From an uncultured Candidatus Saccharibacteria bacterium (GTDB lineage Bacteria; Patescibacteriota; UBA1384; 2-12-FULL-50-11; DASWYB01), in assembly GCA_964372935.1 (NCBI GenBank), contig CAYJRF010000003.1:3903-67902 (forward strand): DNA of 64,000 bases, written 5' to 3'. Every line of letters begins with the position of its first letter. Position 1 is the first letter of the stretch. The notes below the pieces were generated by a model, which worked only from the letters and a program-made list of their open reading frames with translations, was not told the origin of the DNA and ran no database searches. The position numbers and the translations under genes are program-made. This document shows, piece by piece, positions 7,707 through 43,853 of the stretch.

Positions 7707-8621
7707 TTATCGCCGAGCCGAGGAAGGGCGCTCCGCCGTAACTGTCAGTCGGTCGCCTTGAACCGTGGCGGTAACAGTGCCGTTTTGATCGGTGCGATAG
7801 GTCGTAATCCCGCCCTCGGCCAACTTGGCCACCGCGCTAGGGGCGGGATGGCCGTACCGGTTGCCGGCGCCAACTTCGATCACGGCATATTTAGGATTGA
7901 CGGCCTGTAGAAAATTAACGGCCAAGCCGGTTTTGGATCCGTGATGGGGCACTTTCAGGACATCGGCCTGAAGTGGCAGGCCGGCGTTAAGAATAGCTTG
8001 TTCCTGACCCTCGTCGAGATCGCCAGTCAAAAGAAAACAGTAGGTTAAGTAGCACGCCCGCACGACGATCGTGGCGTCGTGCTGATCGTCGGGCCGCGCT
8101 CCGACCATGGATTGAGTCGGATGAAGCACCGTCAGTGATACTTCGTCAATGACAACGCTATCGCCCTGCTTGACAATTTTCGTCGGTATTCCGAGCGTGT
8201 TAATGTTACCGAGCAACTTGAGGTACTCGTTGGTGGTATGGATCGCCCCGGACAGCCACATTTGGCGCACGGTGTAGCGCTCCATGACAGCGTTTAGGCC
8301 AGTAATATGATCGGCGTGGTTATGAGTCGCGATTACCAAGGCAAAGTCGTGGGCAAAAAATGGCATAGCCGCGCCGAGACGGGTCAGAATGGCGCTGTCG
8401 GGACCGCCGTCAATCAGGATCCGTTCTCGGTGAGGCGTGGTGATCAAAATTGCGTCGCCTTGGCCAACGTCCAAAAAACGAACCGTCACTTTCGGGACTT
8501 GGTCGCTGGCTTGAGGGATTAGACCAGCCGAGACGACGACAATCGCCGCCAACGCCAGCAATCCCAAACCGAATTTAATCAATCGGGACACGCCGCCTCC
8601 AATCGGTATAGAGCCAGACAA
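7707..8621 (-). CDS. comEC: ComEC C-terminal module: one TM helix plus metallo-beta-lactamase domain
   Basis: 304 aa; N-terminal TM (FGLGLLALAAIVVVSAGLI) then MBL motifs FLDVGQGDA, HNHADH, HHGS; overlaps the upstream comEC membrane ORF by 47 nt in another frame. Confidence 0.72.
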   Translation of the reverse strand: MSGSIPIGGGVSRLIKFGLGLLALAAIVVVSAGLIPQASDQVPKVTVRFLDVGQGDAILITTPHRERILIDGGPDSAILTRLGAAMPFFAHDFALVIATHNHADHITGLNAVMERYTVRQMWLSGAIHTTNEYLKLLGNINTLGIPTKIVKQGDSVVIDEVSLTVLHPTQSMVGARPDDQHDATIVVRACYLTYCFLLTGDLDEGQEQAILNAGLPLQADVLKVPHHGSKTGLAVNFLQAVNPKYAVIEVGAGNRYGHPAPSAVAKLAEGGITTYRTDQNGTVTATVQGDRLTVTAERPSSARR

Positions 8622-19616: not shown

Positions 19617-20732
19617 CTACTGTTCTCTACTATATTCTAGAGAGATAGCTCCTATGGGTGGGCTAAAGTCGTAGCCTACTACCATGCGTTTTTTCTCAGC
19701 TCCAGCCTTTACCATCATAGCCGTTAATTCTTCTTCAGTAAATCCGCTCTCATAAGAACGAATGCCAGATTCTGCTAACCAATGGCTCTCACGTACATAC
19801 GACTTGTAAAGATCGGAAATTTTTTGTCCACGTCTTGCTTTGAGCATGTGATTAATAAATACTGCCGCCATACCAACTTTACCCAATAAACGAAGACGCG
19901 ACCGGGCTCGTTTGAGTATTGTAGAATACCGTGTTGTATCAGCAACAATCAGTTTACCTCCCGGTCTCAACTTGCTCAATGCCGCAGCAAAAAACTCTAC
20001 GACCCGCTGATGAGAATGTTCATGTAGAGCCAATGTTGAAACTATCACATCGCACTCTTGTTCATCAATGGATTCTAAAATAATTCCGTCTCCTTGCACT
20101 AAAACTATTTTGTCTCTAACGCGGGAAAAGGATTTTTTGCCCAGAATCTCGATCATGTCTTTTGATAAGACGTGCGGCTCTTTTGCGATGTCAATAATCT
20201 TTATAATAAAATTATTTCCGATGAAATTCTGTAAACAATCGGCAATAAAATAACCTAAAACCCCAAAGCCACCAAACGGGTCACAAATGACAACTTTTCT
20301 TTGCTGACTCACCGCCTTTAAATGTCGAATTAGTCCTGGATCCAGAAACTTGGTGAGGATCTTATTGATGAATTCTCTATTAGGCCCAAGCTGTACCAAC
20401 GCCAGATCCCTCATAACACCCTGGCTAATAGACATAAGCCGTGAGGGTTCCAAAACAAGTGACCCTATGACAGCCGCCGTTGCTAAATCATCGTGTCGTA
20501 CAAACTGTTGAGCTATTTTTAGGAGTGGATGATGACTCTTGAGGAGAGCCGGATGTATGTAGCCCCCGTACCATCTACGTCTGACGAGAGCGACACGGAC
20601 TTCAGGATACTGTGTAAAAATGTTTTCATCAAGAACCACTACTTCCCCGCATCTATAAGGTTCCACCGGTCTGGGTCTTGCGTCGTCCCATAGCTCATCC
20701 TGCTTCAAACATAGCATCGGCCGAAAGACCAT
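19617..20732 (-). CDS. class I SAM-dependent methyltransferase with an N-terminal domain of unknown function of about 130 aa
   Basis: 371 aa; motif I VICDPFGGFGVLG, acidic post-I IIDIAKE, motif IV DVIVSTLALHE; AT-rich. Confidence 0.72.
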   Translation of the reverse strand: MVFRPMLCLKQDELWDDARPRPVEPYRCGEVVVLDENIFTQYPEVRVALVRRRWYGGYIHPALLKSHHPLLKIAQQFVRHDDLATAAVIGSLVLEPSRLMSISQGVMRDLALVQLGPNREFINKILTKFLDPGLIRHLKAVSQQRKVVICDPFGGFGVLGYFIADCLQNFIGNNFIIKIIDIAKEPHVLSKDMIEILGKKSFSRVRDKIVLVQGDGIILESIDEQECDVIVSTLALHEHSHQRVVEFFAAALSKLRPGGKLIVADTTRYSTILKRARSRLRLLGKVGMAAVFINHMLKARRGQKISDLYKSYVRESHWLAESGIRSYESGFTEEELTAMMVKAGAEKKRMVVGYDFSPPIGAISLEYSREQ

Positions 20733-21739
20733 TACACTATCCTTGGCGAACGTCGGCCAGAAATTTTGGTAAAATTCGGATTGAGAGGTCGGCCGAGACG
20801 GAAAAGGACTTGGGGTCGATACCTAGAGTCAATTTCTGCTCGGAGCCTAGGAGAGAGCGTTGGCACTTCAATTGGAGCAGCAGCGATACAGTGAGCAAAA
20901 TTATGCCTAGCCCCATCTAGAAGAACTCGCTCCATGAGACGGCCACTCCCTAACCAAGCTTCCGGGCCGTCGTACTCACTGCCAATGATTACGTGAAGCG
21001 GTGAACTAGAAAACGTTCCACGCCAATAGAGTGCTTCGGCTTCGGGATTGATGATTTCACCTAGCTTCCGATACGAAGAACGAGAGTTCGGCAACTTCTC
21101 AACTAACGCCCCTAGTGACATGCCAGTTTCAGGAGTATCAATCGGATCGATTAATTCGAATAATTCCCTGACCATCGGCTTCATTGACAATGCCAACTTG
21201 GTACCTTCGCCGACAAGTTCAGCTATCCTTAACCGAGCCTGGCTGTCAACGATTGAAAAAAGTTTTATTTCGGGTTCAGAGAATCTTTCTGCCTCATCAA
21301 GGAATGTGGAGCTCAGATCAGAAGAATAGTTACCTCTGTTGGTATGGCGTTTAGTCAAACCATCAAACAATTCTTCGAAGGGAAGTCGAGCGTTTACTGG
21401 AATGAATTTTACCGACGCTACCTTAATAGCATGGACAGTTTGGGCCATAATCTCCACTTTTCCGTCAAAACCCCAATGAGCCGCGGCCACAACAAGATTC
21501 TCAATAAAGGCGCCTAGCCCAATAAATGTTTCGCGCAGGGTTGGATCGCCCACAGCGAGTGTGTGTTCCGGATCGCGATAGAGAAACAAAGATTCACCCT
21601 TCACCTCAACAAGCCACGGTTGGGTGTTATGAGCCGAGGGAGCGAGAATTGCGTATCTAAGCCAAAATTTAATTTTCTCACTTATGTCAGCCGATACAGG
21701 AAAGTCCCGTTCGTCAATTTGCCAAACGGAAGTACTCAT
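20732..21739 (-). CDS. nitroreductase-superfamily FMN oxidoreductase (Acg-family-like / SagB-like dehydrogenase)
   Basis: 335 aa; signature APSAHNTQPW near the N-terminus; length fits double half-domain Acg-type proteins; shares a stop/start nucleotide with the methyltransferase gene. Confidence 0.7.
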   Translation of the reverse strand: MSTSVWQIDERDFPVSADISEKIKFWLRYAILAPSAHNTQPWLVEVKGESLFLYRDPEHTLAVGDPTLRETFIGLGAFIENLVVAAAHWGFDGKVEIMAQTVHAIKVASVKFIPVNARLPFEELFDGLTKRHTNRGNYSSDLSSTFLDEAERFSEPEIKLFSIVDSQARLRIAELVGEGTKLALSMKPMVRELFELIDPIDTPETGMSLGALVEKLPNSRSSYRKLGEIINPEAEALYWRGTFSSSPLHVIIGSEYDGPEAWLGSGRLMERVLLDGARHNFAHCIAAAPIEVPTLSPRLRAEIDSRYRPQVLFRLGRPLNPNFTKISGRRSPRIV

Positions 21740-21741
21740 AG

Positions 21742-22971
21742 TTAGTCCTTTCCAAAAAGGAGATCTGTACTCTCGATAAATTCCGCTTTTTGCCGAGATC
21801 GCGCTAATTTGGCCGCCTTGGTCATATACTCTGGATCAAATTCAGCATCAAAATGAATTTCGTAACGACCGGACGGCATAGATAGCCCCGCCAAAATACG
21901 TCTGGCGACGTAGGCAACCGTAGCCCCCGAAAGAGTAGCCGCCGTGCCCAACTGCGGCCAAGTAGGCAACTTTGTCCCAACTTGGGTCAAGGAAAGTTGC
22001 ATTCTGGGCACGACATCGGGGCCAACAATACGATTAGCTAATTTAACTTTCTCGGCCATTGTTGGGTTAGACGGCAAGTTGCGAAGACGATCTTCCGATA
22101 CTCGGCCATGAAACAGGAGCCGTTCGGGTTCAAGGTCAAATCGTTCAACGTCAATAATAGTGTTGTCGCCATTATCGGTTGCCATCACAACCGGGATTCT
22201 CAAAGCTCGAGCCATGAAACGCGACTCAATCTTTAATTTAATGTTGTCCATCTCTTCGATGAAGAGTTGGAGTTTTTCCCCCTTGCCTTCGCCCGAGACA
22301 AAAAATTTTTTCATGTTCGCCTCGGTCAATCCCTCGCTAAAAACCTCGAGTTCTTGGTAAGGATTCATTTCATAAACTCGACGCGCCGTCATGATTGATT
22401 TTTTTTGTGCTAAATCTGTCACTGAAGCCGAAAGTCGATTAAGGTTGGTAATCGATAACGTGTCCAAATCAGCGATACGCATTTTGCCGCCACCACCCGT
22501 GAGGATAAGCCCATTAACCACTGACGAACCAACACTTAATCCAGCTATGCCGATGCGGGACTGATAAAATTTTTCTTGCTCTTCCAATGTGATGAGAAAT
22601 TTATTGCGAGCTGTCCGTAGCTTAAAATAATCGCTTGGATCCGGGAGGTGGACCAGAGTCCAACGCCAAGGGAAATACACCCACAATCCAACCGTATCGA
22701 ACTCTCGTTCGCCAATGTAACGGTTCTTATAACGCGTTAAAGTCTGTTTGTACTCGGGACTGCCGGGAGCAACAAAAGGAAAGTCAATTTTAAACAAATC
22801 CTCGATAGCCTCGGCAAGGGAGTCAACGATTTCGTAAACTTCGTGATTTTTTCGCAGCTCAGAGACCCGCCTTCGGTCGGGTTCTTGGTCTAGGTCAAGG
22901 ATTTCCGGTTGCCATTTAGTTTCGCTTAACTTTGGATCAACACCGCTGTCCATGTTTAGCGTCTTATCCAT
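21742..22971 (-). CDS. E1-like ThiF/MoeB-family adenylyltransferase with an N-terminal extension of about 115 aa
   Basis: 409 aa; core from about residue 115: ...EEQEKFYQSRIGIAGLSVGSSVVNGLILTGGGGKMRIADLDTLSITNLNRL... and ...VMATDNGDNT...; extension of unknown fold. Confidence 0.72.
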   Translation of the reverse strand: MDKTLNMDSGVDPKLSETKWQPEILDLDQEPDRRRVSELRKNHEVYEIVDSLAEAIEDLFKIDFPFVAPGSPEYKQTLTRYKNRYIGEREFDTVGLWVYFPWRWTLVHLPDPSDYFKLRTARNKFLITLEEQEKFYQSRIGIAGLSVGSSVVNGLILTGGGGKMRIADLDTLSITNLNRLSASVTDLAQKKSIMTARRVYEMNPYQELEVFSEGLTEANMKKFFVSGEGKGEKLQLFIEEMDNIKLKIESRFMARALRIPVVMATDNGDNTIIDVERFDLEPERLLFHGRVSEDRLRNLPSNPTMAEKVKLANRIVGPDVVPRMQLSLTQVGTKLPTWPQLGTAATLSGATVAYVARRILAGLSMPSGRYEIHFDAEFDPEYMTKAAKLARSRQKAEFIESTDLLFGKD

Positions 22972-24455
22972 TTGTGTTTAATTTTAATTTCAAAATCCTC
23001 ATTACCAAACTCCATAAAGTGAATTATCGGATCCGCTCTTTCCTTAATTTCTTGGTATAGCCGATTATATTCGCTATTCTGGTCTTTTAAGTTACTAATA
23101 ATCGACTTTAGAATTCGATTTTTTATGCCCGCCAATGGAGAAACGTCTTTTTTTAACTCAATATACAGATGCAAGCTTTGCTCTTGAGTATGTTCGTCGT
23201 AGAGCGTCTTAACGATAAATTTTCCGGTGACAAAAGCGTCTGTCTTTGACTTTTCTATGCCTCTTTTGATGTTTTCGGGAAAAATATCCAAAGCGTAGAA
23301 AGTTGTTGAGACATCCATCCGATAGTACAGAGCCAAATGAGGCTGCTGGGCATAAACGAGCAGTGGCTTAGGTAATCGGCCACGCCAAGGAGAGATTAAA
23401 TCATTAAGTTCAACTGGGTTAATGACTCTGCCTCGATCTAAAATTTGATACCGGATAAGAGGCAGGGAATTATTAGCCGTAAAAATTAGGTCCTCACCGG
23501 CTTGCTCAAAATAGCGTAGCTCGGGGCGATAATGAACGAACGTCGGCAAAACTGTAGTGCCGGGGAAAAGGCTATAGAAAAGTTTCCGGTCGCGGTCCGC
23601 GATTCGACGCAACAGAATGGAAAGTGGATTTTCATGGCCAAGCAAACCAGCGTCTGCCGTGCCATAGATGCTATACAACGTTTTTTCTGGATGTCTACCT
23701 TTAATGTGTTTGATAACATAGTCACGCCAGGCCTCCGAAATAGATTCCCCAGCTACAACTATCTTAAGGTTTAGTAAATCGAAGCGAACCCGTTCTTCGA
23801 CCCCACTATCAATAACGTCCTTAACGAAGGGTGGATAGCCCATGAGTACAATCTGATCAAAGAACGGAGCAAGTACCTTAAAGATGTTGACAATCGCCGC
23901 TTTATCAATGCCTGGCGTAATCGCAACCAAACGATGTCCCTGATCGGCTAGTCCTTGTATCGCGCCGAGGGTGTAGGTTCCACCAATCCAAGTCCCCATG
24001 GCGAAAGCGATAATCACCAAGGTTTCTCTATCTTTGGTGGCGAAGCCCTGTAAAAAAATGTCCTCGTGAAGTTTTATTGACTCTGCCAGGCTTTGATTGC
24101 CACGAGGCCACAAATGCGATTGCCCGCTCGAACCAGAACTCATAGAAACAATGCGGACGCTTTCGGTACATCCGTCCCACAACATATCATCAAGAGGATA
24201 TTGTTTTAAATAATTTTCTTTCGTTACTGCTGGTAATAATCGGAAGTCTTCTGGGCTCTTAATATTTTCTGAGTTAACGCGATGCCGTTTAAGAAAATCT
24301 TTATAGGCGGGGACACGTTGAGCGGCTTCTTGAAAAGTTTTTAGGGCGTTATTGAACCCAGGCAAATCAACTGACTTCCTAGCTTCGAGCTTATTTGATT
24401 CCCTAGATTTAATCATTTTTGAACCTAAAATGAGGCGTGAAACCCCCAACAACAT
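22956..24455 (-). CDS. adenylate-forming enzyme of the PaaK / F390-synthetase / CapK family
   Basis: 499 aa; AMP-binding-like SSGSSGQSH and C-terminal ...GEDLIFTANNSLPLIRYQILDRGRV... matching the PaaK-family C-terminus; an internal Met giving a start at 24416 is equally plausible. Confidence 0.68.
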   Translation of the reverse strand: MLLGVSRLILGSKMIKSRESNKLEARKSVDLPGFNNALKTFQEAAQRVPAYKDFLKRHRVNSENIKSPEDFRLLPAVTKENYLKQYPLDDMLWDGCTESVRIVSMSSGSSGQSHLWPRGNQSLAESIKLHEDIFLQGFATKDRETLVIIAFAMGTWIGGTYTLGAIQGLADQGHRLVAITPGIDKAAIVNIFKVLAPFFDQIVLMGYPPFVKDVIDSGVEERVRFDLLNLKIVVAGESISEAWRDYVIKHIKGRHPEKTLYSIYGTADAGLLGHENPLSILLRRIADRDRKLFYSLFPGTTVLPTFVHYRPELRYFEQAGEDLIFTANNSLPLIRYQILDRGRVINPVELNDLISPWRGRLPKPLLVYAQQPHLALYYRMDVSTTFYALDIFPENIKRGIEKSKTDAFVTGKFIVKTLYDEHTQEQSLHLYIELKKDVSPLAGIKNRILKSIISNLKDQNSEYNRLYQEIKERADPIIHFMEFGNEDFEIKIKHKWIRR

Positions 24456-32497: not shown

Positions 32498-32574
<77 letters not shown>

Positions 32575-32712: not shown

Positions 32713-32787
32713 GGCTGCGTAGCTCAGCGGTAGAGCAGCGGACTCATAAGCCGTCGGTCGCAGGTTCAAATCCTGCCGCAGCCACCA
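32713..32787 (+). tRNA. tRNA with CAU anticodon (elongator Met or lysidine-type Ile2; cannot tell from sequence)
   Basis: Acceptor ggctgcg/cgcagcc + A + CCA; anticodon loop ctcataa; T-arm gcaggttcaaatcctgc. Confidence 0.78.
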
Positions 32788-32918: not shown

Positions 32919-33920
32919 CTATTGTTTGTTTTTTAAATTTTCTCCGCTTGCTTCGGCGTCCACTTCGTAATTTGTATTTTGCTGTTCAAAAAAATTTACC
33001 AGTTCAAACACATCAGTGGCGGCACCCATCCATTTCGCTGGGTTGGTTACATTATAGTGTTTTGGCAATCCAAGTTCTCCTAGTCGGCGATCAGCGACAT
33101 ACTGTACGTATTGGTTTACATAATCCACGTTGAGGCCGAGTATTCCTGTCGGAAAAAGATCTTTGTTATAAGCCACTTCTTTATCGACACCCTCAATAAC
33201 AATAGCGCCTATCTCATTGGCAAAATCTTTGGTAAGAAGTTCCGAATTTTCTTCCAACGCCGTATGAATAAGATGGATGCCAAATTTAAGGTGCAAACTC
33301 TCGTCTCGCAGCACCCAATTTATCATCGAGCCGAAGTTGCGCAACTGGTTTCTTTGCCTGAACGATAGGGCGACCATAAAGCCACTGTAGAACCATAAAC
33401 CCTCCATAACAATATTTGTCGCGACAAGATTACGGATGAAATCTTTTTTCCCCTCAACTGATTCAATATCCAAGGCCTTATCAGTCATGCGCTTTAAATA
33501 CTTCACGACATAATCCTCTTTCGCACTCATTGACGGAGTTTCTAAATGCAAATTGAATATTTTATTCCGATCAAATGAAAATGTTTGCAGGACATATTCA
33601 AATGCGACACAGTGATTTGCCTCTTCAAACATCTGTTTCGCAAGGTAGAGATGACATTCAGGAGATTTGAGATACGGGTATATGCCAAGAGCGATTGATC
33701 GGTTGACAATCAGCTCAGCCGGATTAAAAAAAGCCATGAGAAACTTGACCGCATGGCGTTCGTCCTCGGTCATATTTTTCCAGTCCTCAAGGTCTTCCTT
33801 TAGAGCTATCTCGTGCGGAAACCAAGTGTTGCGCACGGCTTGATTATAAAGATCGTACGCCCAAGCGTAGTGTATTGGGTGTAAGTTCATGTCTTCCGGT
33901 GAGGCTTTTCCGAGGATCAT
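32919..33920 (-). CDS. nrdB: ribonucleoside-diphosphate reductase beta subunit (class Ia R2)
   Basis: 333 aa; di-iron/tyrosyl radical motifs (EEANHCVAFEY, MEGLWFYSGF); AT-rich gene. Confidence 0.9.
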   Translation of the reverse strand: MILGKASPEDMNLHPIHYAWAYDLYNQAVRNTWFPHEIALKEDLEDWKNMTEDERHAVKFLMAFFNPAELIVNRSIALGIYPYLKSPECHLYLAKQMFEEANHCVAFEYVLQTFSFDRNKIFNLHLETPSMSAKEDYVVKYLKRMTDKALDIESVEGKKDFIRNLVATNIVMEGLWFYSGFMVALSFRQRNQLRNFGSMINWVLRDESLHLKFGIHLIHTALEENSELLTKDFANEIGAIVIEGVDKEVAYNKDLFPTGILGLNVDYVNQYVQYVADRRLGELGLPKHYNVTNPAKWMGAATDVFELVNFFEQQNTNYEVDAEASGENLKNKQ

Positions 33921-33955
33921 AGTTTTTTGAATTATTTATTTGATAATTACTGGTA

Positions 33956-36418
33956 TCACTGGCAACTGTCGCATGCTAATCTTTCTTGCGGATCAATTGG
34001 ACAAACTTTTTCGATAGGAACTTGCAGTGTAACTTCCTCTGTTTGCTCGAATGCTTTTGCGAATCCGACCTTGCCCAGTTTCTCTGATTTGTTGACCGCA
34101 ACTGTACTCTGCTCAGCGGTGTGCCGGGGCTTCATGTGGAGATAGTATGTTGTTTTGACACCTTTTCTCCATGTCGAAGCATAAATATCCATTGCTTCGT
34201 CCACGTCTCTTGTTGCAAGATACATATTTCTTGAAAGAGCTTGATCAACCCACTTTTGGGCTCGCGCCGCAACTTCAACGTATGCAAGTGGCGGAATCGT
34301 AAAGGATGTTTTATACACGTCTCGGATATGTTGAGGTATATCAGAGATCGATGAGATATCTCCTTGAAGTTCAATAATCTTGTCTCGGACTCGTTCCCAC
34401 AAGTTGAGATTTTTGAGTTCGGTAACAAGATTGTGGTTAATATCAAGGTACTTACCTGAAATCTTGTTGCGTGAGAATACTTGGGCGAATCTCGGATCAA
34501 TTCCCGGTGTCGTGCCAGCAACCAGTCCAATGTTTGCGTTCGGTGCAACAGCAAGGAGAGTGGCGTTTCTCATTCCTTTTTTTACTTTTGCGCGCAGAGC
34601 ATCCCAGCCAAGCCCTTTGTGCTTACTTTTCTTATCAAGATCAAGCGTCATACCCCTGTCTTTTTCAAGCTCTTCAATCGTATCAATAGGCACTTTGCCC
34701 TTAGACCATCCCGAACCCTTGAAATGCTTGTAACTTCTGCGTTCCGTTGCTAGATTAGCGCTTTCATCAATTGCGATGAAACTTACGAATTCAAAAATTC
34801 CATCGGCAAAATCATTCGCGTGAGGACTGTCGTAAGGAATACCAAGCTGTTCAATCGTATCGGAAAAACCCATTACACCGAGACCAATAGCCCTGTTTTC
34901 TTTGTCTGACTTCACCGCCTCGGGGACAGGCAGTTCATTGATGTCAATAAGATTGTCGAGCTGGCGCACCGCGTAGCGCACGCTTTTTTCAAGTTTCTGC
35001 CAATCTACCTGCTTTTTTTTGAGGTGCGCGGCAAGGTTGATTGACGCGAGATTACATACGGCAATATTGTCCTTGTCTTGTGGTAAACATATTTCGGTGC
35101 AAAGATTCGACATGTGGATTGTGCCAGTGTTGCTATGAAGGGTACGCAGATTGATCGGGTCTTTCCACGTAAGCCATGGATGGGACGTTGTTTGGAGCGA
35201 AACGAGAATCTGTCTATATTGTTCTCTCGCCGGGACTTTATTGAATACTCTTATTTTTCCGGTCTCGGCCTTATCAATATATTCGGCATATCTTTTTGAA
35301 AATACTTTGCCGTAGAGTTCGTTAAGGTCTGGCGTTTCTTTTGGATCGAACATATACCAATCACCGCCATTTTCTACTCGCTTCATAAATTCGTCCGATA
35401 AAAATACGGCGGTGTTTGCTGTTCTCATGCGAAGGTAGTCATCGCCCGCGTTGTGTTTCCAATCAAGAAATTCCGGAAAGTCGATGTGCCAATTTTCCAT
35501 GTAGAAGCAGAGTGCGCCCTTCTTCTTCCCGCCCCGTTGAATGGCGCGAATGGCGGTATCAATAATTTTGGCAAAAGGAGTCGGCCCGCTTGATGTCGTG
35601 TTATCTGAAGAGAGAGGCGAGCCAGTAGCGCGCAGTTTGGTGATGGACGCCCCAATACCGCCGGATGCTTTGGAAAGTTTCATGACATCCGTAATTGATT
35701 TTGCGATATGATTTATATCATCGTGAATCTCAAGGAGAAAACAGTTAGAAAGAGCGGGTCGAGGTGTTCCCGCATGAATATTGGTTGACCCGCCGGCGAT
35801 GTATTCATGGCGCGACATTTTGTCGTAAAAACGGATTGCCCATTCCGTTGGATCTTTCTCATTGTATGAAAGCCCCATTGCAACGCGCATAAAAAAATAT
35901 TGAGGCACTTCAGCAGGGTTTTGGTTTTTATCCTTGATAGTGTAGCGATTAAGGAGAGTTGAAAGACCCGCGTAAACAAACAGTTCGTCCCGATTAATAT
36001 CAAGCGCGCCCGCAAGGCAAGAGAGATCAAACACTTTCTCCATACGAGCGTCGAGAATACCGTCTTTCACTCCATTTTTAACATAACGAACAAATCCTTC
36101 GTGATGAAGTTCTATTAATTCATTGGCGTTTTCATAATCGCCAACGACTCGTTTATAGATAGTTTTGAGTAAAATTCGTGTTGCGATTTTGTCGTATTCA
36201 GGATCATCTTTTATATTCTGTACTGCCGCATTTATTGTCGCTAAATCGAGCTCTTCCGTAGTGATACCATCGTACAAAATTATCTGCGTATCCGTTCCCA
36301 CTTGAGTGACTTTACTTATCGGATCGCTTAATCCCATGCTTGCCCGCTCAATGGATCGGTTGATTCGATCTGCGTTAAAAGGTTCTTTGGAGCCGTCTCG
36401 TTTTGTTATGTTGATCAT
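33956..36418 (-). CDS. nrdA: ribonucleoside-diphosphate reductase alpha subunit (class I, with ATP-cone)
   Basis: ORF is open to 36463 (TTG), but the Met at 36418 (MINITKRDGSKEPF, ATP-cone start) follows a GAGG SD; catalytic region includes NLCTEI and C-terminal CxxC; AT-rich. Confidence 0.9.
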   Translation of the reverse strand: MINITKRDGSKEPFNADRINRSIERASMGLSDPISKVTQVGTDTQIILYDGITTEELDLATINAAVQNIKDDPEYDKIATRILLKTIYKRVVGDYENANELIELHHEGFVRYVKNGVKDGILDARMEKVFDLSCLAGALDINRDELFVYAGLSTLLNRYTIKDKNQNPAEVPQYFFMRVAMGLSYNEKDPTEWAIRFYDKMSRHEYIAGGSTNIHAGTPRPALSNCFLLEIHDDINHIAKSITDVMKLSKASGGIGASITKLRATGSPLSSDNTTSSGPTPFAKIIDTAIRAIQRGGKKKGALCFYMENWHIDFPEFLDWKHNAGDDYLRMRTANTAVFLSDEFMKRVENGGDWYMFDPKETPDLNELYGKVFSKRYAEYIDKAETGKIRVFNKVPAREQYRQILVSLQTTSHPWLTWKDPINLRTLHSNTGTIHMSNLCTEICLPQDKDNIAVCNLASINLAAHLKKKQVDWQKLEKSVRYAVRQLDNLIDINELPVPEAVKSDKENRAIGLGVMGFSDTIEQLGIPYDSPHANDFADGIFEFVSFIAIDESANLATERRSYKHFKGSGWSKGKVPIDTIEELEKDRGMTLDLDKKSKHKGLGWDALRAKVKKGMRNATLLAVAPNANIGLVAGTTPGIDPRFAQVFSRNKISGKYLDINHNLVTELKNLNLWERVRDKIIELQGDISSISDIPQHIRDVYKTSFTIPPLAYVEVAARAQKWVDQALSRNMYLATRDVDEAMDIYASTWRKGVKTTYYLHMKPRHTAEQSTVAVNKSEKLGKVGFAKAFEQTEEVTLQVPIEKVCPIDPQERLACDSCQ

Positions 36419-36442
36419 GTTGTGCCTCACTTGATTAATAAA

Positions 36443-36466
36443 AACACTTGCACTACGCGCCAAGTG
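36443..36466. promoter_or_regulatory. palindrome ACACTTG-n10-CAAGTGT in the nrdA 5' leader, just upstream of the SD
   Basis: Read directly; ACAC...GTGT ends recall NrdR-box half-sites but spacing differs from the 16-bp consensus. Confidence 0.3.
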
Positions 36467-36814
36467 TTCTCATATTCCTTCACAGCTTAAGTGAGGCGAC
36501 TTGACGCGAGCCAGAGAAGGTGCCCGAGGGCACTAATATGAGGGGTCGGACTTATCCGCTTGATTAGCGAAATTACCGTTACGCGATAGCGAGGGAATTA
36601 CACCCTGCTTCACCTCATATCTTCTTTTTTTAAGTTGTACAGTATCAATATAGCACAAATAAATTATTTCCAATATTTTAGTGTAAAAATCAAAAGAGCA
36701 AGAAACTTTTTTGGGGTGGTGCCGAGCGAGGCGGTGGCGTGGCGATGGTTCGTGCATGGTACAAAAAAACAGTCCCATTCAACCAATTGGTTAAATGGTG
36801 TCGTAAGGATCAAT

Positions 36815-37222
36815 TTACCGTGGGCCGAAAAAGAGGCGCCACCACGCAAGATAGGGAGGAAGACCGGCGGAAGATTGGGGCTGGGCCGAGGCGTCAGCCA
36901 CTCCAAGGGTAGCGGCCGTGTTTGCTTGCGGTAGAGCGACCACGTGCTCATCTTTACCTTTAACTCCCAGCAACCGCCGCGCCTCAATTTCTTTATAGGA
37001 ATTACTGCGGTAGTACACCAGCGCCAGTTTGAGCAAGATGTTGCGTTGTTCGAGAGTTTTAATGTGATCTTTTTGAGTGTTGATTTCCCGATTCATCCGA
37101 TAATTTTGGGCCGTGCTCGTAACGACTAAAAACAGCCCGTAGCCGATGACGACAAGCCAAATTAAACTTTTGGTTAAAGACAGGGGAGTGGACAATCGGT
37201 TGGATGACGTCTCGGGAGCCAT
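36815..37222 (-). CDS. FtsB/DivIC-like septum formation initiator
   Basis: 135 aa; single N-terminal TM then coiled-coil (REINTQKDHIKTLEQRNILLKL...) and a short conserved C-terminal part. Confidence 0.5.
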   Translation of the reverse strand: MAPETSSNRLSTPLSLTKSLIWLVVIGYGLFLVVTSTAQNYRMNREINTQKDHIKTLEQRNILLKLALVYYRSNSYKEIEARRLLGVKGKDEHVVALPQANTAATLGVADASAQPQSSAGLPPYLAWWRLFFGPR

Positions 37223-37297
37223 AGCTCAATACTATCACACGCGAAAATCCCGCCAATTTTGACGGGATTTCGCGGCGACGATAGGGGATAGGGGAGT

Positions 37298-39508
37298 CTA
37301 CCAGCGCGCCTTGCGTTTGGGACGACGCCCACCTCGGCCACCGGGGCGGCGGCCGCGAGGCGGACTGGCGGGTTTTGACTCTGCCGGGGCTACCGATTTT
37401 GACGGTTCGGGCGTCGCCTTGGACGATGCTGCCGGCCCGCTACCCCCAGATCCGTTCTTATCCCCTCCTCTAGCGTCGCCCTGATACCAAGAGTAGGCCG
37501 CCAAACCGGTGCCGGCCAAGATCAGAAAAACGGCGATGGCAATAATCACCTTGGACCGATCCGGCACGGCGCCGGCTTCATCCGATGGCGTTGGGCTGGC
37601 TTGAAGATTCTCTTGAGAGTCGGGGATGCCGTTACCGTTTTTGTCCTCCTCCGGGCTAAGAGTACTGCCGCCGCCGTCTTTTTCGCCCGTTACCGCCATG
37701 GCTTGCGCCAAGATAAGCCGCTCCTTTTGGGCGGTTGGCATTTCGCGAGCGACGCTGGCCAAGACGATTGCTCGGGTCATGCCCCGCAGAGTGGTAATGC
37801 CGCTTTGGTTGCACGCGCCGTCAATCGCCGCGACGGCAAACTCGTATTCCACGCCGTTTGACACTTTAATATCGTGGCGACGGCCAGACGTGATGACCTC
37901 ACTCCACGGTTCGGTCCCGACTTGTCGCCAGCGCAAACGGTACTCGCTGGCGTCGCCAACCGCGTCCCAGTGAGGGGTGATCACGCCGCCGCTCGATTTC
38001 AACTGGAGATTTGGGGCGGCCGGAGCGAAGATGTCGTTGTCGATTGCGATAGTTTCGGTGTTGCCGGTGATGTCTTTCGCCACAAGATAAAGGCGGGAAA
38101 AACGGTTATCGCCGATAAATATCTCGTCGGTTCGGCCGTTGGTCGCCGGGGCGATTGCCACCAGATCGGTCAGGCTAAGCCCGGGATCGCGGTAAATAAA
38201 CACTTGGACCACGTCGGCGACGGCCGAGAGCGTGAACGAGTCTTGGTTCGGCGAGCACCGGCTGGTTACTGTGGCGGTTATCGGGCCGATTTTGGTGTCG
38301 ACGGTAAAACTCTGCTGGGCGATGGTGATTCCGTCCGCCAAAAGAGTAACCGTGACAGTGCCGTCTTGGGGACTGTTAGCTTTGACAACCGAAAACGGCG
38401 TCGCCGTTGTCCAGGTAACGCCGTCGGCCGCCAGGACCAAGGGAATAGTTTCGGCCGGCGTTGCTGGCCGTTCAAAAACCAGCGCCAGGTCGTAACCATT
38501 CAGGGCGTCGGCCGGCGTGGTGGTGACACTGGCGTTAACCGCGCCGATCCCAAAATTGGTGGCAACATCTTGGTCCTTAAAGACCATCGTCACCCCGATA
38601 GTGCCAAAAATAGTCGTCGGGGCTTTAGGAACGGCGGTTCGAGTAACGGTTTGGCTGACGCCGGACTCGTTTTTGGCCGTTAGTTTGACAGTGTAGCTCA
38701 CGCCATTAACCAAACCGGCGCTAAATGGCTGGCTGTAGCTGGCCGATCCAGCCAGAATATCGCTGACGGCGGTAACAACGCTGTCCGGGCTGGTGGTGTG
38801 GAGACTTAAATCGTAGGCGGTGGCGGCGGCGGCGGCTATCCACTCCGCCGTAATGGTCTTGTCGCCGGCGGTCAAGGTTAAAGCGGGGTCGGACGGCCGA
38901 CGGCGGGTGGGAGTGGGCGAGGCCGTAACGCTAAAATCGGCGGCGTTATTGTTGGTGTCGGTATGTAAGGCCGAACGAGTTAAGCTTTCTCCGGCCAGCA
39001 GTCCCCCGCCGACGTTCACGGCGCCGGTGGCGTCCGGCTCGCCCGCCGGAGCGACGTCGCCTGTCTTGACGTAGCCGACGGTATCAATTACCGCGCTGGC
39101 GGCGTCACGCAAGATTACGGCGTTGTTGCTGTTGACGAGCGAAATGGTGGCGACGACATCGCCGGGCACGGCCCCGGTGTAGCCGGAACCGACGACCAGA
39201 TAGTAGTCGCGGCTAAGAATGACGGTTCCGTCGGGAAAGGTGATGATATTATTAGTCGTTCCACCGCTCGTCAGCCGCTCCAATTTCCACCCGGCCAAAG
39301 CCACGCTGTCCGGCCCGGGATTGTACAGCTCGATAAATTCGTCGCTGATGGTGGCGCCTCGGGCTTGAATCTCGTTGAGAACTACCCCTGTGCCGCTGGT
39401 GTCGGCAAGAACTTTTGGCGGCGCGACCGCCCCTAATGGCGCTACCACCAAACAAAACAGACTGACACAGGCCAAAAACCGTCTCAAACTAGGCCGCAGA
39501 TCAACCAT
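37298..39508 (-). CDS. large surface protein: signal peptide, lamin-tail domain, FN3-like repeats, C-terminal TM anchor and Arg/Lys-rich tail
   Basis: 736 aa; LTD signature VVLNEIQARGATISDEFIELYNPGPDSVALAGWKL; FN3-like segments; C-terminus ...IAIAVFLILAGTGLAAYSWY...RGRRPGGRGGRRPKRKARW. Confidence 0.68.
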   Translation of the reverse strand: MVDLRPSLRRFLACVSLFCLVVAPLGAVAPPKVLADTSGTGVVLNEIQARGATISDEFIELYNPGPDSVALAGWKLERLTSGGTTNNIITFPDGTVILSRDYYLVVGSGYTGAVPGDVVATISLVNSNNAVILRDAASAVIDTVGYVKTGDVAPAGEPDATGAVNVGGGLLAGESLTRSALHTDTNNNAADFSVTASPTPTRRRPSDPALTLTAGDKTITAEWIAAAAATAYDLSLHTTSPDSVVTAVSDILAGSASYSQPFSAGLVNGVSYTVKLTAKNESGVSQTVTRTAVPKAPTTIFGTIGVTMVFKDQDVATNFGIGAVNASVTTTPADALNGYDLALVFERPATPAETIPLVLAADGVTWTTATPFSVVKANSPQDGTVTVTLLADGITIAQQSFTVDTKIGPITATVTSRCSPNQDSFTLSAVADVVQVFIYRDPGLSLTDLVAIAPATNGRTDEIFIGDNRFSRLYLVAKDITGNTETIAIDNDIFAPAAPNLQLKSSGGVITPHWDAVGDASEYRLRWRQVGTEPWSEVITSGRRHDIKVSNGVEYEFAVAAIDGACNQSGITTLRGMTRAIVLASVAREMPTAQKERLILAQAMAVTGEKDGGGSTLSPEEDKNGNGIPDSQENLQASPTPSDEAGAVPDRSKVIIAIAVFLILAGTGLAAYSWYQGDARGGDKNGSGGSGPAASSKATPEPSKSVAPAESKPASPPRGRRPGGRGGRRPKRKARW

Positions 39509-39839
39509 AACAGACCTCCAGAGTTTACTATTGATTCAGTTTTGCTTGACTTTACGCGTCGACTGCGGCCAAGTTGCGTTCTGGCCTCGCCGGTCCCTCC
39601 TATAAAAACCAAGGCGACGGCGGCGGTTGATGCCGCCAGCCGTATCTTCACGAAAAACTGTTACCATAGCCCTGGGGTGCGACGCTTCCTTCAAGTCGTA
39701 CCCGAACAAGCCATAGTGCTAACCAGAACCTAGCAAACACCGCGTAGGGTTGTCAAGAGACGCGGCGGCGGCAAAGTATCGTCCACTAGAACAATGAAGC
39801 CCTGGCAAGGCTTGAGAAGTTACTCCCCAGGTTTAATTT

Positions 39840-39915
39840 TGGTGGGCGCACATGGATTCGAACCATGGACCGGGCGGATATAAGCCGCCTGCTCTGCCAT
39901 CTGAGCTATGCGCCC
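39840..39915 (-). tRNA. tRNA-Ile with UAU anticodon (tentative)
   Basis: Reverse complement gggcgcatagctcagatggcagagcaggcggcttatatccgcccggtccatggttcgaatccatgtgcgcccacca folds canonically; anticodon stem ggcgg/ccgcc, loop cttatat (U33, UAU, A37); body resembles Ile2-type tRNAs. Confidence 0.72.
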
Positions 39916-40137
39916 GTGTCGCGGCTTACTTCGTCGCGGCAAGAGAATGGATTAAAGCGCTCCCACTATAACAAAAACGGGGGTCGAGCTCAATTGACTG
40001 GCCACGGCGCGGGACGGGTAGCGCGCCACTGATCCAAGATGGGTTAAGAGAGCCCCGGCGATATTTTTCCGTGGCCACCGCCGATCTGGCCGAGTTTTGC
40101 ACCTTCAGCTTGGCGCCAAGCTGGATTTTTCTCGGGT

Positions 40138-41355
40138 ATGGCGAGAGATAGTCGCCTGCCGTCTCGTTTTTTACCCGTGGCGAAACAGTGGACGACAATG
40201 TGCTACAATGGCGGCAGTTACCCGATGAACGAAAACCGCGAACTCGCCTTACCGAGTGACGAACCCCCAACGAACACGCGCCGGCCGGAAACCGTCGAGC
40301 GTCCCGACGGTGTTAGTTTGGAGTTTTGGGCGAAGTTGGGACGATTTCCGCTCGATATCCAAGAGGCTGTGGCCAGCCTTTCGCCCCCAATTCGCGCTCA
40401 AATTTTTGGCCGACCCGAGGCCAAGTCCCTGTCAACCAATTCGACCGCCGAAATAAGTCGGATCCTGCAATCTGTGGAAGCCGACAGAATCTACCTCCGC
40501 CACGAATATGAGTCTATATGGGAAGAAACCGAGATTGATTCCCTTGACAGAGTGGATCGTGAGACGGTGACACGAAACACCCTTGGTCGTTTTTTACGAG
40601 ACGTCAATATCCGAGACTCCGTGACGGATAACCCCGCCGCCGTGGGAGACATCATGGATTCGCTCTGGAGAAATCGCGGCAAAAAAGGCCCTGATGTCGA
40701 GCCGTACCGACGGGAGCACTTTGACAATCTTCGACGCGAGTTGGATGTCCTGCAAGCCGAAAAACAAGCCATCATTGACGAACTTAATAAGTTGGGAGCG
40801 AAAAAGAGCCTGAATCGTCGAGAGAGTCACCGTCAGGACGAGCTCGGTTCTATCCTCGCCCTAAATTATGACAATGTTTGGTACGCCAGCGCCGTGCGAG
40901 GTAAAGGAAATCCTTATTCCACTCCCGAAAAACAAAGACATATAAACGAACTAACGTCTGGGATACAATCGGGCGAGAAAGAGTTGGGTCGGCAAAGGAC
41001 GCTTGCCTTCGTTCTCCCGTACATGGATGCAACTGACTGTGCTGTCACCGTTATGGAGACCGTTTGTCGGGAATTGTATCGATTCCAGCGCCGAGACTCG
41101 GCGCTGATTCGAAAGATCGCTGCGCAGGTTGACGAATGGTACGAGCGCCACCAATACGACCCAGCTTTGAAGCAAGCACTTCAAAAAGACGCCTCGCGGG
41201 AGGTACGACAACAAAAGCTGGCCGAACATTTTTGGCGCTTATTTAAATCTTACGATCGATTGACTGAAGAACCGAACACCGAGCCGAGTCGGCTCGAAAA
41301 TACCGCTCGCGAAATAATAGTGGTGCTTCATTTACTGGACCCGCCAAGCCGATAA
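40138..41355 (+). CDS. hypothetical protein (405 aa), no recognisable domain
   Basis: Long ORF in host-like GC; Asp/Glu/Arg-rich predicted helical protein; the first gene after tRNA-Ile(UAU). Confidence 0.45.
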   Translation: MARDSRLPSRFLPVAKQWTTMCYNGGSYPMNENRELALPSDEPPTNTRRPETVERPDGVSLEFWAKLGRFPLDIQEAVASLSPPIRAQIFGRPEAKSLSTNSTAEISRILQSVEADRIYLRHEYESIWEETEIDSLDRVDRETVTRNTLGRFLRDVNIRDSVTDNPAAVGDIMDSLWRNRGKKGPDVEPYRREHFDNLRRELDVLQAEKQAIIDELNKLGAKKSLNRRESHRQDELGSILALNYDNVWYASAVRGKGNPYSTPEKQRHINELTSGIQSGEKELGRQRTLAFVLPYMDATDCAVTVMETVCRELYRFQRRDSALIRKIAAQVDEWYERHQYDPALKQALQKDASREVRQQKLAEHFWRLFKSYDRLTEEPNTEPSRLENTAREIIVVLHLLDPPSR

Positions 41356-41435
41356 CTCGCCGTTTTTGCTCGTAGGCGGCGTAAAAGAAAATTGACGCAC
41401 CGGCGCCTGTAAATCCTCGAGGGGATTTTTAGTTG

Positions 41436-41476
41436 CAGTGGGGGAGCGGCAAAAAGTATTTTTTCGGTTGTGAACA
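41436..41476 (+). repeat. 41-bp direct repeat, copy 1 (cagtgggggagcggcaaaaagtattttttcggttgtgaaca)
   Basis: Identical to 43710-43750; contains a -35-like TTGTGA, followed 20 nt later by an extended -10 TGCTAGAAT. Confidence 0.8.
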
Positions 41477-42141
41477 GTTGTGTAATCAATACTTTTGTGC
41501 TAGAATATCATTACCGTTTGTCTTGGCCAAGAAGGGGGGGCGATGTGGCCGCGACGACAGGTCTATCGCGTCTGGTCGGCGCGTGGCTGCGGAAGCGGCT
41601 ACTCGTGCCCGACAATTTGCCCGATCAGGGCATCTCGGTGCTGGCGGTGGTGGTTGTCCCGTTCGGGCTCCACCACGGCACGCTGGGACCGAAAACGGCG
41701 GCAGTGGTTGAGCGAGCGGTTGAACTGTGCCGCCAGTACCACGCCGTTAACGTCATCGCCATGGGAGGTTGGCAGTCAGTCGGCCAACGCGAAGGGCCGC
41801 TGATCGCCGCGGCGCTTAAAGGGCAAGTCCCCGACTCAACGAGCGTCGTGGTCGAGGACGCGACCCGAAACACCTTTGAGCAAGCCCGATATTTGCGCAA
41901 TATTGTGCCGACACTCAATGGTTGTCCGAGCGTCGCGATCATCGTCGTGGCCGACGAGCTGCACGCGCAACGCGTGGCTCTGCTGGCGACAAGACACCTC
42001 CGCGGTCTGGCAAAGGTACACCGCGCCAGCACCCGCGCCAACGATTGGGAAAACGACAAGTTGGCCCTGACTAACCCGATTATCTTTGGCTTCCGGGAAC
42101 TGGTGTTGCTTGTTATCTCCCGCCTCATCTGGTGTCTTTAA
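41470..42141 (+). CDS. DUF218 / YdcF(SanA/ElyC)-family protein
   Basis: ORF from 41470, but the likely start is GTG at 41545 after AAGGGGGGG SD; DUF218-like segment ...VNVIAMGGWQSVGQREGPLIAAAL...VVEDATRNTFEQARYLRN... Confidence 0.65.
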   Translation: MNSCVINTFVLEYHYRLSWPRRGGDVAATTGLSRLVGAWLRKRLLVPDNLPDQGISVLAVVVVPFGLHHGTLGPKTAAVVERAVELCRQYHAVNVIAMGGWQSVGQREGPLIAAALKGQVPDSTSVVVEDATRNTFEQARYLRNIVPTLNGCPSVAIIVVADELHAQRVALLATRHLRGLAKVHRASTRANDWENDKLALTNPIIFGFRELVLLVISRLIWCL

Positions 42142-42186
42142 ATCCTCCGCGGCCGACAGCGCGCCCGGAGGATTTTTCTTTTGGGG
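42141..42186 (+). terminator. intrinsic terminator after DUF218 gene
   Basis: 9-bp stem aatcctccg/cggaggatt followed by tttcttttgg. Confidence 0.6.
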
Positions 42187-42418
42187 CCGATACTTTTCCG
42201 TGGCCACCGCCGCGTCAATGAGCTACAACCACGCCAGCCCGACAATTCAAACTGGATGTGTGCGTTTTCTTAGGTGATCCGTTACGTTCCATTGTCTTTG
42301 ACATTATTACTAACATAAGCCTTCTTTATGCCAAACTAACCGCAGGCGAGTTTAGTAGGGAAAACTCCCCCAACATTTTCCACGCCGCTCTGTCGATCGG
42401 TTAGCCTTACCTACTTAT

Positions 42419-43363
42419 CTAAAATGAATGCGTAAAAGTGGCAAAGCTTTGGATATCTCGTTCTGGTGTGACTTGAATAAAGACCGCACCTGGAAGTTTG
42501 CGTTTCTTAAGGAGTTGAAATTTGCCTCCAATCCGAGCTTCAAGACTAATGGTGCCGTCTTTACGCGAGCACGCTTTCGAACCTCCCAAGTCGGCAAAGA
42601 AATGTTTCCACTCTAAGCGAAGTCGAAGCTTCCAAATAAATCGGCCATCATCCCAGCTAAAAGCATCGGTTAAGCCGATTCTAAAGTCTTGCTCATTTTG
42701 CGCCTTGCCCTCAATGTTTCCGCTTTCATCTTCCGGTATCTGCTCTAATTGTTCTTGTAAAAATAATTGATTCTCGCTGAAATGTTGTTGACTAAGTTGA
42801 GATTGGACATAAGTTTGAGCCAGAGACGTCGCTAATGTTCCAACGACACGGGCAGGATTGTTACTATTTACAAGGGCGGCACGCAGGCTGGGTTCAAGCA
42901 CACTATTATCTATAGTGTGAACACTGGAGTCCATAACAAAAAGATGGGCTTGGCCTTTGAGCGCGCTGTCGAGAGCTTGGTGGAGTAAATCGTTAAGTTT
43001 CTTATTTGGGCAGACCAGGGATGTAGGAGTGGGAGAGGATGTAGGAATGGGACTTGAGCAGTATATCGGTCCTGCCGTTCCAATTTCCAGCGATTTATTA
43101 ACTGAACTTTGATTATAGTTTTGCGAGGGAGGGACGTAGAAGTTTGTAGAGATCGCCGACGGTGAGAGCACGGGCGTTGGGGAATAGGTGTAAGTCGGTA
43201 AAGGAGAAGGAATCAAAGTCGGTGTTTCGGTGGGGCTTGGGGTCAATATAGGGGTGGGAATAATGCAACCAGGAGAAGTTACAAGGCTATCGGCAGTAAT
43301 TTGCAGGTAAGAAATAAACGTTGCGCCAGCAAGACCAAGCGCCAAGAAAATTGCTAATAGCAA
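42419..43363 (-). CDS. secreted/anchored hypothetical protein with Pro/Thr/Ser-rich N-terminal region (AT-rich gene)
   Basis: 314 aa; N-terminal hydrophobic signal MLLAIFLALGLAGATFI, PTPILTPSPTETPTLIPSPLPTYTYSPTPV linker; about 37% GC on sampled lines. Confidence 0.5.
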   Translation of the reverse strand: MLLAIFLALGLAGATFISYLQITADSLVTSPGCIIPTPILTPSPTETPTLIPSPLPTYTYSPTPVLSPSAISTNFYVPPSQNYNQSSVNKSLEIGTAGPIYCSSPIPTSSPTPTSLVCPNKKLNDLLHQALDSALKGQAHLFVMDSSVHTIDNSVLEPSLRAALVNSNNPARVVGTLATSLAQTYVQSQLSQQHFSENQLFLQEQLEQIPEDESGNIEGKAQNEQDFRIGLTDAFSWDDGRFIWKLRLRLEWKHFFADLGGSKACSRKDGTISLEARIGGKFQLLKKRKLPGAVFIQVTPERDIQSFATFTHSF

Positions 43364-43709
43364 TCTGTGAGTACGGACAAATTTAGTTAAGCGGGAGACA
43401 ATTCCCTCCTATCGTTATTCAATGATACACTACACAGAACTCACGTCTAGTTGCTGTATGCGTCAGATTTTTGCCACGATGGCCTCCTTTGACGGCTTGG
43501 TCAACATCGGTCCTAGTGTTATGACTCGCTTGTCCACGCGATGGTGGTGCCCAAATCGCCGCTAGCATTGCCTCAAAAGCGGGGCTTAAGACAACCTGTG
43601 CGTCGCCGGCGCCATGCTTCACAACGTGGGCCTTGTCCATAAAAGTCATCTAGGCAAGAAATTTATCGGCCGGCTCGTCTCCTGTCGCCCGACGGAAATT
43701 TTTTGACGA

Positions 43710-43750
43710 CAGTGGGGGAGCGGCAAAAAGTATTTTTTCGGTTGTGAACA
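43710..43750 (+). repeat. 41-bp direct repeat, copy 2
   Basis: Exact copy of 41436-41476; followed by GC hairpin cgcccg-ccct-cgggcg. Confidence 0.8.
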
Positions 43751-43853
43751 TTCGCCCGCCCTCGGGCGGCTACTCCCCAAGACGGCGGTAGCGGGAATCA
43801 GTCTTAGTTTGCTCCAGCGACCGCGGCCGCGCGATAGGGGAGTGGGAATATCG

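Follow-up and report, generated by a model that had tools for sequence, protein, structure and literature searches.

The gene on the minus strand at positions 39840..39915 of the window (the whole 64-kb stretch of DNA analysed here) is confirmed as a genuine, conserved tRNA-Ile with a UAU anticodon. We consider it probable that this is a functional, vertically inherited chromosomal gene of a Berkelbacteria-related member of the Patescibacteria (CPR), and that it replaces the lysidine-dependent system. The placement of the window organism in the Patescibacteria (CPR), near Berkelbacteria, follows from its LepA relatives and its gene content. The closest named LepA relatives are from Candidatus Berkelbacteria (55-57% identity), with other Patescibacteria below Berkelbacteria and other relatives at 60-66%, and the window encodes LepA, MurJ, FtsH, DivIC, an LTD protein, a split transketolase, ComEC, RecG, MutS/L, DnaK and a divergent MiaA. 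UBA1384, a name used below, is taken here to be Berkelbacteria, as deduced from eight genomes of Brown et al. 2015.

Run as the predictor check that the initial annotation had proposed, ARAGORN returns the Ile isotype and the anticodon tat at 39840-39915 (-), for one of six tRNAs in the 64-kb window. Rfam model RF00005 matches 39843-39915 (-) with 66.2 bits relative to a gathering score of 29, across model positions 1-71 of 71. The gene is 76 nt long, CCA encoded, and its sequence is GGGCGCA TA GCTC AGATGGCA GAGC A GGCGG CUUAUAU CCGCC CGGUC CAUGG UUCGAAU CCAUG UGCGCCC A CCA; the RNA reading is GGGCGCA-UA-GCUC-AGAUGGCA-GAGC-A-GGCGG-CUUAUAU-CCGCC-CGGUC-CAUGG-UUCGAAU-CCAUG-UGCGCCC-A-CCA. All four stems are perfect, and the 7-nt anticodon loop CUUAUAU comprises C32 U33 U34 A35 U36 A37 U38. 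ARAGORN, Rfam and the sequence itself thus agree on the canonical minus-strand fold and the loop cttatat (U33, UAU, A37) first annotated. The description of an Ile2-like body also holds, as the window's anticodon arm and variable loop occur in 40 metagenome tRNAs with a CAU anticodon.

The Ile determinants C4:G69, U12:A23, C29:G41 and A73 can all be read in the window tRNA. Work by Nureki and colleagues in 1994 is said to have placed A38, A73, C4:G69, U12:A23 and C29:G41 among the identity elements of E. coli IleRS. A38 is the member of the E. coli set that is absent here, being replaced by U38 in the window tRNA and by C38 in its relatives L066 and L067. The TilS substrate base C34 is also absent, T34 being shared by the window tRNA, an independent assembly and the orthologues; because position 34 is U and not C, the window tRNA offers no substrate to TilS. 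Upstream, a consensus scan for sigma-70-like sites (1 site compared with 0.4 expected) gave a pattern match at 39965..39993 (-), consisting of TTGAGC, a 17-nt spacer and a TG-extended TATAGT, whose -10 element ends 50 nt before the tRNA 5' end. The tRNA may be transcribed from this promoter-like site of its own. Terminator-like matches show no clear excess (2, with a shuffled expectation of 0.8 +/- 0.8), and a weak hairpin with a poor T-run at 39797..39813 (-), located 27 nt past the 3' end of the tRNA, could serve at most as a weak terminator or processing signal.

A single base separates the UAU from the CAU anticodon, and the anticodon arm is otherwise equal to that of many CAU-type Ile2 genes. 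Both points would suit a sequencing or assembly error in which the true base 34 is C and the gene is an ordinary lysidine-type tRNA-Ile2, but the chance of this is negligible given what other assemblies contain. A 4868-bp contig (L065) from the Logan assembly of run ERR3478686, reached through a flanking hypothetical protein, matches window 36598-41465 at 99.92% identity (4 mismatches), and its tRNA, assembled from that other run, is 100% identical to the window tRNA, T34 included. We also compared the anticodon in relatives, as had been suggested, and found UAU in both of the syntenic ones. These relatives, found through their LepA homologues, are L066 (LepA 66% identical to that of the window) and L067 (63%; NCBI GCA_034680565.1). 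Both carry a tRNA-Ile(tat) at the syntenic position, between SOD/CsoR and the LTD-domain gene, with the anticodon stem of the window tRNA and a loop that differs solely at position 38 (C rather than the window's U). In a third relative, L068 (LepA 60% identical), the SOD-LTD context is missing and the nearest 10 kb contain no Ile tRNA. The LepA regions of named Berkelbacteria (L138, L140) have another synteny and no tRNA, which makes them uninformative. Assembly GCA_034680565.1 holds two different relatives, L067 and L068 (JAXOUH010041378.1 and JAXOUH010041772.1; 537 kb and 427 kb), and with contig numbers >41,000 it is by appearance a metagenome-type or host-associated assembly.

We extended the comparison with two scans in which positions 34 and 38 were left free. 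The genome scan was anchored on the acceptor stem and covered one genome per GTDB species; the window's own species is outside this collection and its tRNA is not among the matches. The metagenome scan used the anticodon stem and variable loop of the window tRNA as a pattern, AGAGCAGGCGGCU-N-AUA-N-CCGCCCGGUC. The genome scan retrieved 61 tRNAs, of which 19 have UAU, 40 CAU and 2 GAU anticodons. Records named as Patescibacteria (including Paceibacteria, Staskawiczbacteria and Nomurabacteria) contribute 16 of the 19 UAU tRNAs. The other three come from two records titled Gammaproteobacteria (L019, L030) and one titled 'bacterium' (L017), and their tRNA sequences are the same as those of Patescibacteria records L038 and L040. 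The 40 CAU tRNAs are from Desulfobulbales and Endomicrobia, and this tRNA family has no CAU member among the Patescibacteria records of the genome scan.

Position 38 follows the anticodon in these data. A38 is present in all 80 CAU tRNAs of the two scans, while 46 of 47 UAU tRNAs have a pyrimidine: C38 in 18 of the 19 UAU tRNAs of the genome scan, and U38 in 28 of 28 UAU metagenome matches that share the window's anticodon stem, which represent at least 6 acceptor-stem families and include high-GC soil contigs. In the metagenome scan, tRNAs with the window's anticodon arm always have A38 when they read CAU and always U38 when they read UAU, and the U38 of the window fits the UAU set. Since this second difference is present, a single sequencing error would not explain the window tRNA; T34 also recurs in the two diverged orthologues and in the 19 other UAU tRNAs of the genome scan. 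A pyrimidine at position 38 is not a universal rule for UAU tRNAs, as 16 of 27 distinct UAU tRNAs from viral contigs have A38, and A38 is likewise found in the B. subtilis delta-tilS suppressor tRNA. We hypothesize that the pyrimidine tunes the 32-38 pair or alters recognition by IleRS. The position-38 signature of UAU tRNAs appears not to have been described before.

Several other contigs encountered in the survey are of separate interest. Some 20 contigs from soil metagenomes, with 67-73% GC (for example L072, L093, L096 and L097), encode a tRNA(UAU) with the acceptor stem GGGGGAG and exactly the anticodon arm of the window, U38 included, and UAU decoders thus seem to be common in some high-GC soil bacteria too. 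On two contigs of 61% GC (L080:1460-1618 and L102:6868-7026), a tRNA-Ile(GAU) and a tRNA-Ile(UAU) are separated by 7 nt, and genes for tRNA-Asn, tRNA-Gly and tRNA-Arg lie a few kb from them; either a phage or a bacterium could be the source of these contigs. A human-gut contig (L115:720-747) has an AAU anticodon in an Ile2(CAU)-type tRNA that otherwise matches L070, L105 and L129; the probable explanation is either a sequencing error or a rare variant.

To assess constraint across the family, 19 distinct UAU tRNAs from the window, its relatives, the genome scan and the metagenome scan were aligned. All 399 of the 399 stem cells pair in the standard way, compensatory double changes are present in 16 of the 21 stem pairs, and C32-U33-U34-A35-U36-A37 is invariant. 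Full pairing, covariation and the invariant loop together indicate strong purifying selection on a functional UAU tRNA. It is accordingly very improbable that the gene is decaying or non-functional, or that the tRNA is charged with another amino acid. That reading could draw on U38, which is unusual for a tRNA-Ile, and on expression being backed by a consensus promoter match alone; it is opposed by the perfect cloverleaf with its retained Ile determinants, by the fully compensated stems and invariant positions 32-37 of the homologues, and by the occurrence of AUA at conserved Ile sites in LepA.

AUA codons are well represented in the window. The 41 confident genes contain 123 of them, a frequency of 7.5 per 1000 codons that amounts to 12% of all Ile codons, with 13 in ftsH, 8 in lepA and 8 in recG; the usage in E. 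coli is 4.9 per 1000 (PMC12514573). When the eight LepA AUA sites are compared with 119 homologues, the residues are Ile in 50%, Val in 18% and Leu in 16%, and never Met. This profile is the same as at AUU/AUC sites, and AUA site 54 is an invariant Ile. Judged from its use in these genes, AUA is a working Ile codon in the window organism.

The window contains two CAU tRNAs, both by ftsH and both of Met or initiator type by their features, and no Ile2(CAU) tRNA was found within its 64 kb. The first, an elongator-type tRNA-Met(CAU) at 32713..32787 (+) with the acceptor stem GGCUGCG, is kept beside ftsH in L066 and L067. It has U4:A69 and G29:C41 in place of C4:G69 and C29:G41 and is not Ile2-like; it would be the elongator tRNA-Met, the reader of AUG and a competitor of the UAU tRNA at that codon. 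The second, at 32498..32574 (+), is initiator-like, with A11:U24, a weak U1-G72 and C73, and is kept in L066, L067 and L068. Initiator tRNAs of bacteria usually have a C1xA72 mismatch and A73. The initiator-like tRNA of the relatives (L066:6157-6233; L067:6208-6284) has U1:A72 where the window has U1-G72. Neither TilS nor IleRS was found among the ORFs of the 64-kb window that were scanned for domains, and an ORF scan of all comparison loci for PP-loop (SGGxDS) and KMSKS motifs gave one spurious match, in an LTD protein. No ileS was thus found in the window or the comparison loci; an IleRS adapted to U34 would be marked by Arg or Lys in place of Trp at the E. coli W905 site, or by being of eukaryote type.

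In many other bacteria, tilS shares an operon with ftsH. In many Paceibacteria-type loci (L031, L016, L024, L004, L035, L049, L079, L122 and others), the tRNA-Ile(UAU) gene is directly downstream of ftsH. No TilS domain was found upstream of ftsH in the Paceibacteria loci. A conserved protein of 480-550 aa is encoded there; we considered it as a divergent TilS and rejected it, as it has no Pfam match, PDB match or PP-loop.

The gene could also be part of a redundant system, in which TilS and a tRNA-Ile2(CAU) are encoded elsewhere in the genome and the UAU tRNA is a supplementary AUA reader. The visible DNA is 64 kb only, so that tilS and tRNA-Ile2(CAU) could lie elsewhere, and both systems are present in Lactobacillus casei (L. 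casei), Cyanothece and Ferrimonas (PMC3575796). To weigh this we tallied the tRNA counts of 95 complete Patescibacteria genomes in Table S2 of PMC13011429, which are given by amino acid without anticodons. At least 2 tRNA-Ile and at most 2 CAU tRNAs are present in 40 of the 95 genomes, and 1 tRNA-Ile with at least 3 CAU tRNAs in 50. Five genomes are mixed (at least 2 tRNA-Ile and at least 3 CAU tRNAs), as a redundant system would be, and the combination of 1 tRNA-Ile with at most 2 CAU tRNAs does not occur. Against redundancy, 40 of the 45 genomes with two tRNA-Ile have just 1-2 CAU tRNAs, the single UBA1384 genome included; the Patescibacteria genomes scanned yielded no member of this tRNA family with a CAU anticodon; and tilS was not found by ftsH or elsewhere in the 64-kb window or in the comparison loci. 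We regard redundancy as unlikely, and replacement of the lysidine-dependent system as the better reading. The loss of tilS from this genome is probable, and AUA decoding in the window organism is likely to be lysidine-free.

The two principal states of the tally are distributed by lineage. The state with at least 2 tRNA-Ile and at most 2 CAU tRNAs comprises Dojkabacteria (7 of 7), Microgenomatia (12 of 12), Paceibacteria (14 of 20), ABY1 (2 of 4) and Gracilibacteria (2 of 5), as well as Doudnabacteria, WWE3 and the single UBA1384 genome. The state with one tRNA-Ile and at least 3 CAU tRNAs comprises Saccharimonadia (34 of 36), JAEDAM01 (7 of 7), Kazan-3B-28, Paceibacteria (5 of 20) and Gracilibacteria (3 of 5). 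The five mixed genomes are two ABY1, one Paceibacteria and two Saccharimonadia. Where two tRNA-Ile are present, we infer that the second gene is UAU.

The tRNA borders a block of hypothetical genes, as the initial annotation had stated, and this block (39916..43850, ~3.9 kb), which lies 5' of the tRNA, is lineage-specific. The window is collinear with L066 and L067 apart from two insertions; 39916-43850 is missing in both of these syntenic relatives, and the gap between CsoR and the tRNA is 226-400 bp in them compared with ~3.9 kb in the window. The block encodes a hypothetical protein of 405 aa (40138-41355, +), a DUF218 protein identified with Pfam (41470-42141, +) and a hypothetical protein of 314 aa (42419-43363, -). 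A perfect direct repeat of 41 nt, with copies at 41436-41476 and 43710-43750 that are 2274 bp apart, flanks the latter two genes. A second repeat of 25 nt occurs at 40059 and 42188, and Logan contig L065 terminates within the 41-nt repeat.

An insertion with internal perfect direct repeats that abuts the tRNA, together with the occurrence of tRNA(UAU) genes on viral contigs, might suggest an accessory tRNA delivered by a mobile element or prophage. However, the orthologous tRNA is at the same position in relatives without the block; thus the tRNA is ancestral at this place and the block a later arrival, and as the later of the two the block did not bring the tRNA in. In addition, Pfam matches in the block include no integrase or phage gene, and the sole viral contig with the window's anticodon arm bears a CAU tRNA, on which basis we rejected a phage origin. 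Delivery by a mobile element is therefore highly unlikely, and we retain vertical inheritance of the tRNA.

Other parts of the window also differ in composition or arrangement. The nrdB and nrdA genes for class I ribonucleotide reductase (window 32919-36463) have 42-45% GC against a background of 55-58%, lie between DivIC and the tRNA-Met, just past the tRNA-Met 3' end, and are absent in L066 and L067. Horizontal acquisition probably accounts for this insertion; a search for flanking repeats gave nothing convincing. A second low-GC region (window 19617-24455, 43-48% GC) adjoins a histidine kinase and comprises four genes, for methyltransferase-like, Acg-family FMN oxidoreductase, Rv1355c/ThiF-like and PaaK-like adenylating proteins; the relatives have a FeeM-like acyltransferase and ThiF there. 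ComEC (window 7707-10062) is encoded by two overlapping ORFs, one for the membrane domain and the other for the metallo-beta-lactamase domain. The split is probably genuine rather than a frameshift, and the same split is called in L068.

We propose the following scheme for AUA decoding in this organism. The tRNA-Ile(UAU) would most likely derive from an Ile2-type gene in which C34 changed to U34, and would be transcribed from its own promoter-like site. IleRS would charge it through the retained elements defined in E. coli (C4:G69, U12:A23, C29:G41, A35, U36, A37 and A73); charging is assumed here, and U38/C38 departs from the E. coli A38. U34 would then read AUA by U34:A Watson-Crick pairing, and the tRNA would stand in for the tRNA-Ile2(CAU)/TilS system, not beside it. 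Misreading of AUG would most likely be limited in the manner of the two characterised bacterial cases, by poor pairing of an unmodified U34 with G, by competition from tRNA-Met at AUG, and by a co-adapted ribosome and anticodon-loop context. The pyrimidine at position 38 is a candidate tuning element; the control that anticodon-loop context exerts over reading by unmodified U34 is emphasized in PMC3919564. The initial annotation had argued that a dedicated modification would be needed to avoid AUG. Such a modification is not required, because both chemically analysed bacterial tRNA-Ile(UAU), those of Mycoplasma mobile (PMC3575796) and of the B. subtilis suppressor (PMC3919564), have an unmodified U34 and prefer AUA over AUG.

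Bacterial UAU decoders are already known, in Mycoplasma, Bifidobacterium and Neorickettsia (17 genomes, PMC8450103), and the window gene is ordinary for its lineage. The description of bacterial tRNA-Ile(UAU) as uncommon and usually accompanied by loss of tilS agrees with the literature, where it is called rare and tied to that loss (PMC3575796, PMC8450103), but the rarity does not extend to the Patescibacteria, where ~45 of 95 genomes have two tRNA-Ile, or to the genome scan, in which 19 GTDB species have UAU. We tentatively suggest, with somewhat less than even confidence, that about half of the Patescibacteria decode AUA by an Ile2-derived tRNA-Ile(UAU) without the lysidine system, and that a co-evolved pyrimidine 38 tunes the loop or IleRS recognition for AUA and not AUG. 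The lineages concerned would be ABY1, Dojkabacteria, Doudnabacteria, Microgenomatia, WWE3, UBA1384/Berkelbacteria and most Paceibacteria. UAU as the default state in about half of the Patescibacteria seems not to have been described before: the main text of PMC13011429 nowhere mentions UAU/TAT, and our literature searches found no paper that joins Patescibacteria/CPR with lysidine, tilS or isoleucine anticodons.

TilS counts as essential, and ~98% of annotated bacterial genomes are reported to have it (PMC12514573). If the suggestion is true, no other bacterial group without TilS would come near these Patescibacteria in size, and what is regarded as a rare exception would become a major natural alternative. 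The group would provide many independent sequences for studying how U34 avoids AUG, through changes at position 38, in IleRS or in the ribosome. It would also bear on whether UAU or lysidine was the ancestral bacterial solution for AUA, and annotation and completeness checks that expect Ile2(CAU) or tilS would misjudge such genomes.

Among known systems, the window tRNA resembles the canonical tRNA-Ile2(CAU -> lysidine-AU)/TilS system in its anticodon stem and variable loop, which are those of 40 CAU genes, in its Ile determinants and in the codon read, AUA; it differs in having U34 rather than C34 and U38 rather than A38. Like the tRNA-Ile2(UAU) of M. mobile (Taniguchi et al. 2013, PMC3575796), it has an encoded UAU anticodon on an Ile2-like body. 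M. mobile also reads AUA without lysidine and has a reduced genome, although it belongs to a phylum other than that of the window organism (PMC3575796). In M. mobile the absence of tilS, the unmodified U34, the adaptation of IleRS at Arg865 and the rejection of AUG on its own ribosome were established by experiment. In Bifidobacterium and Neorickettsia, lineages reported to be without tilS (PMC3575796; 17 genomes, PMC8450103), UAU replaces Ile2(CAU), and a eukaryote-type IleRS is a feature of these UAU lineages. The B. subtilis delta-tilS suppressor, tRNA-Ile1 (G34U), is another case in which a UAU anticodon supports AUA decoding without TilS (Fabret 2011; Kohrer 2014, PMC3919564); its U34 is unmodified and its binding to AUA is far stronger than to AUG (PMC3919564). 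The suppressor, however, is a laboratory-derived mutant of the major Ile1(GAU) with the loop CUUAUAA (A38), whereas the window tRNA is natural, conserved and Ile2-like, with U38. In eukaryotic tRNA-Ile(UAU), U34 is pseudouridylated. The archaeal (Nanoarchaeum, Korarchaeum) and eukaryotic tRNA-Ile(UAU) belong to other domains and, as proposed for the window tRNA, read AUA with U34 and not with a modified C34 (PMC8450103, PMC3919564).
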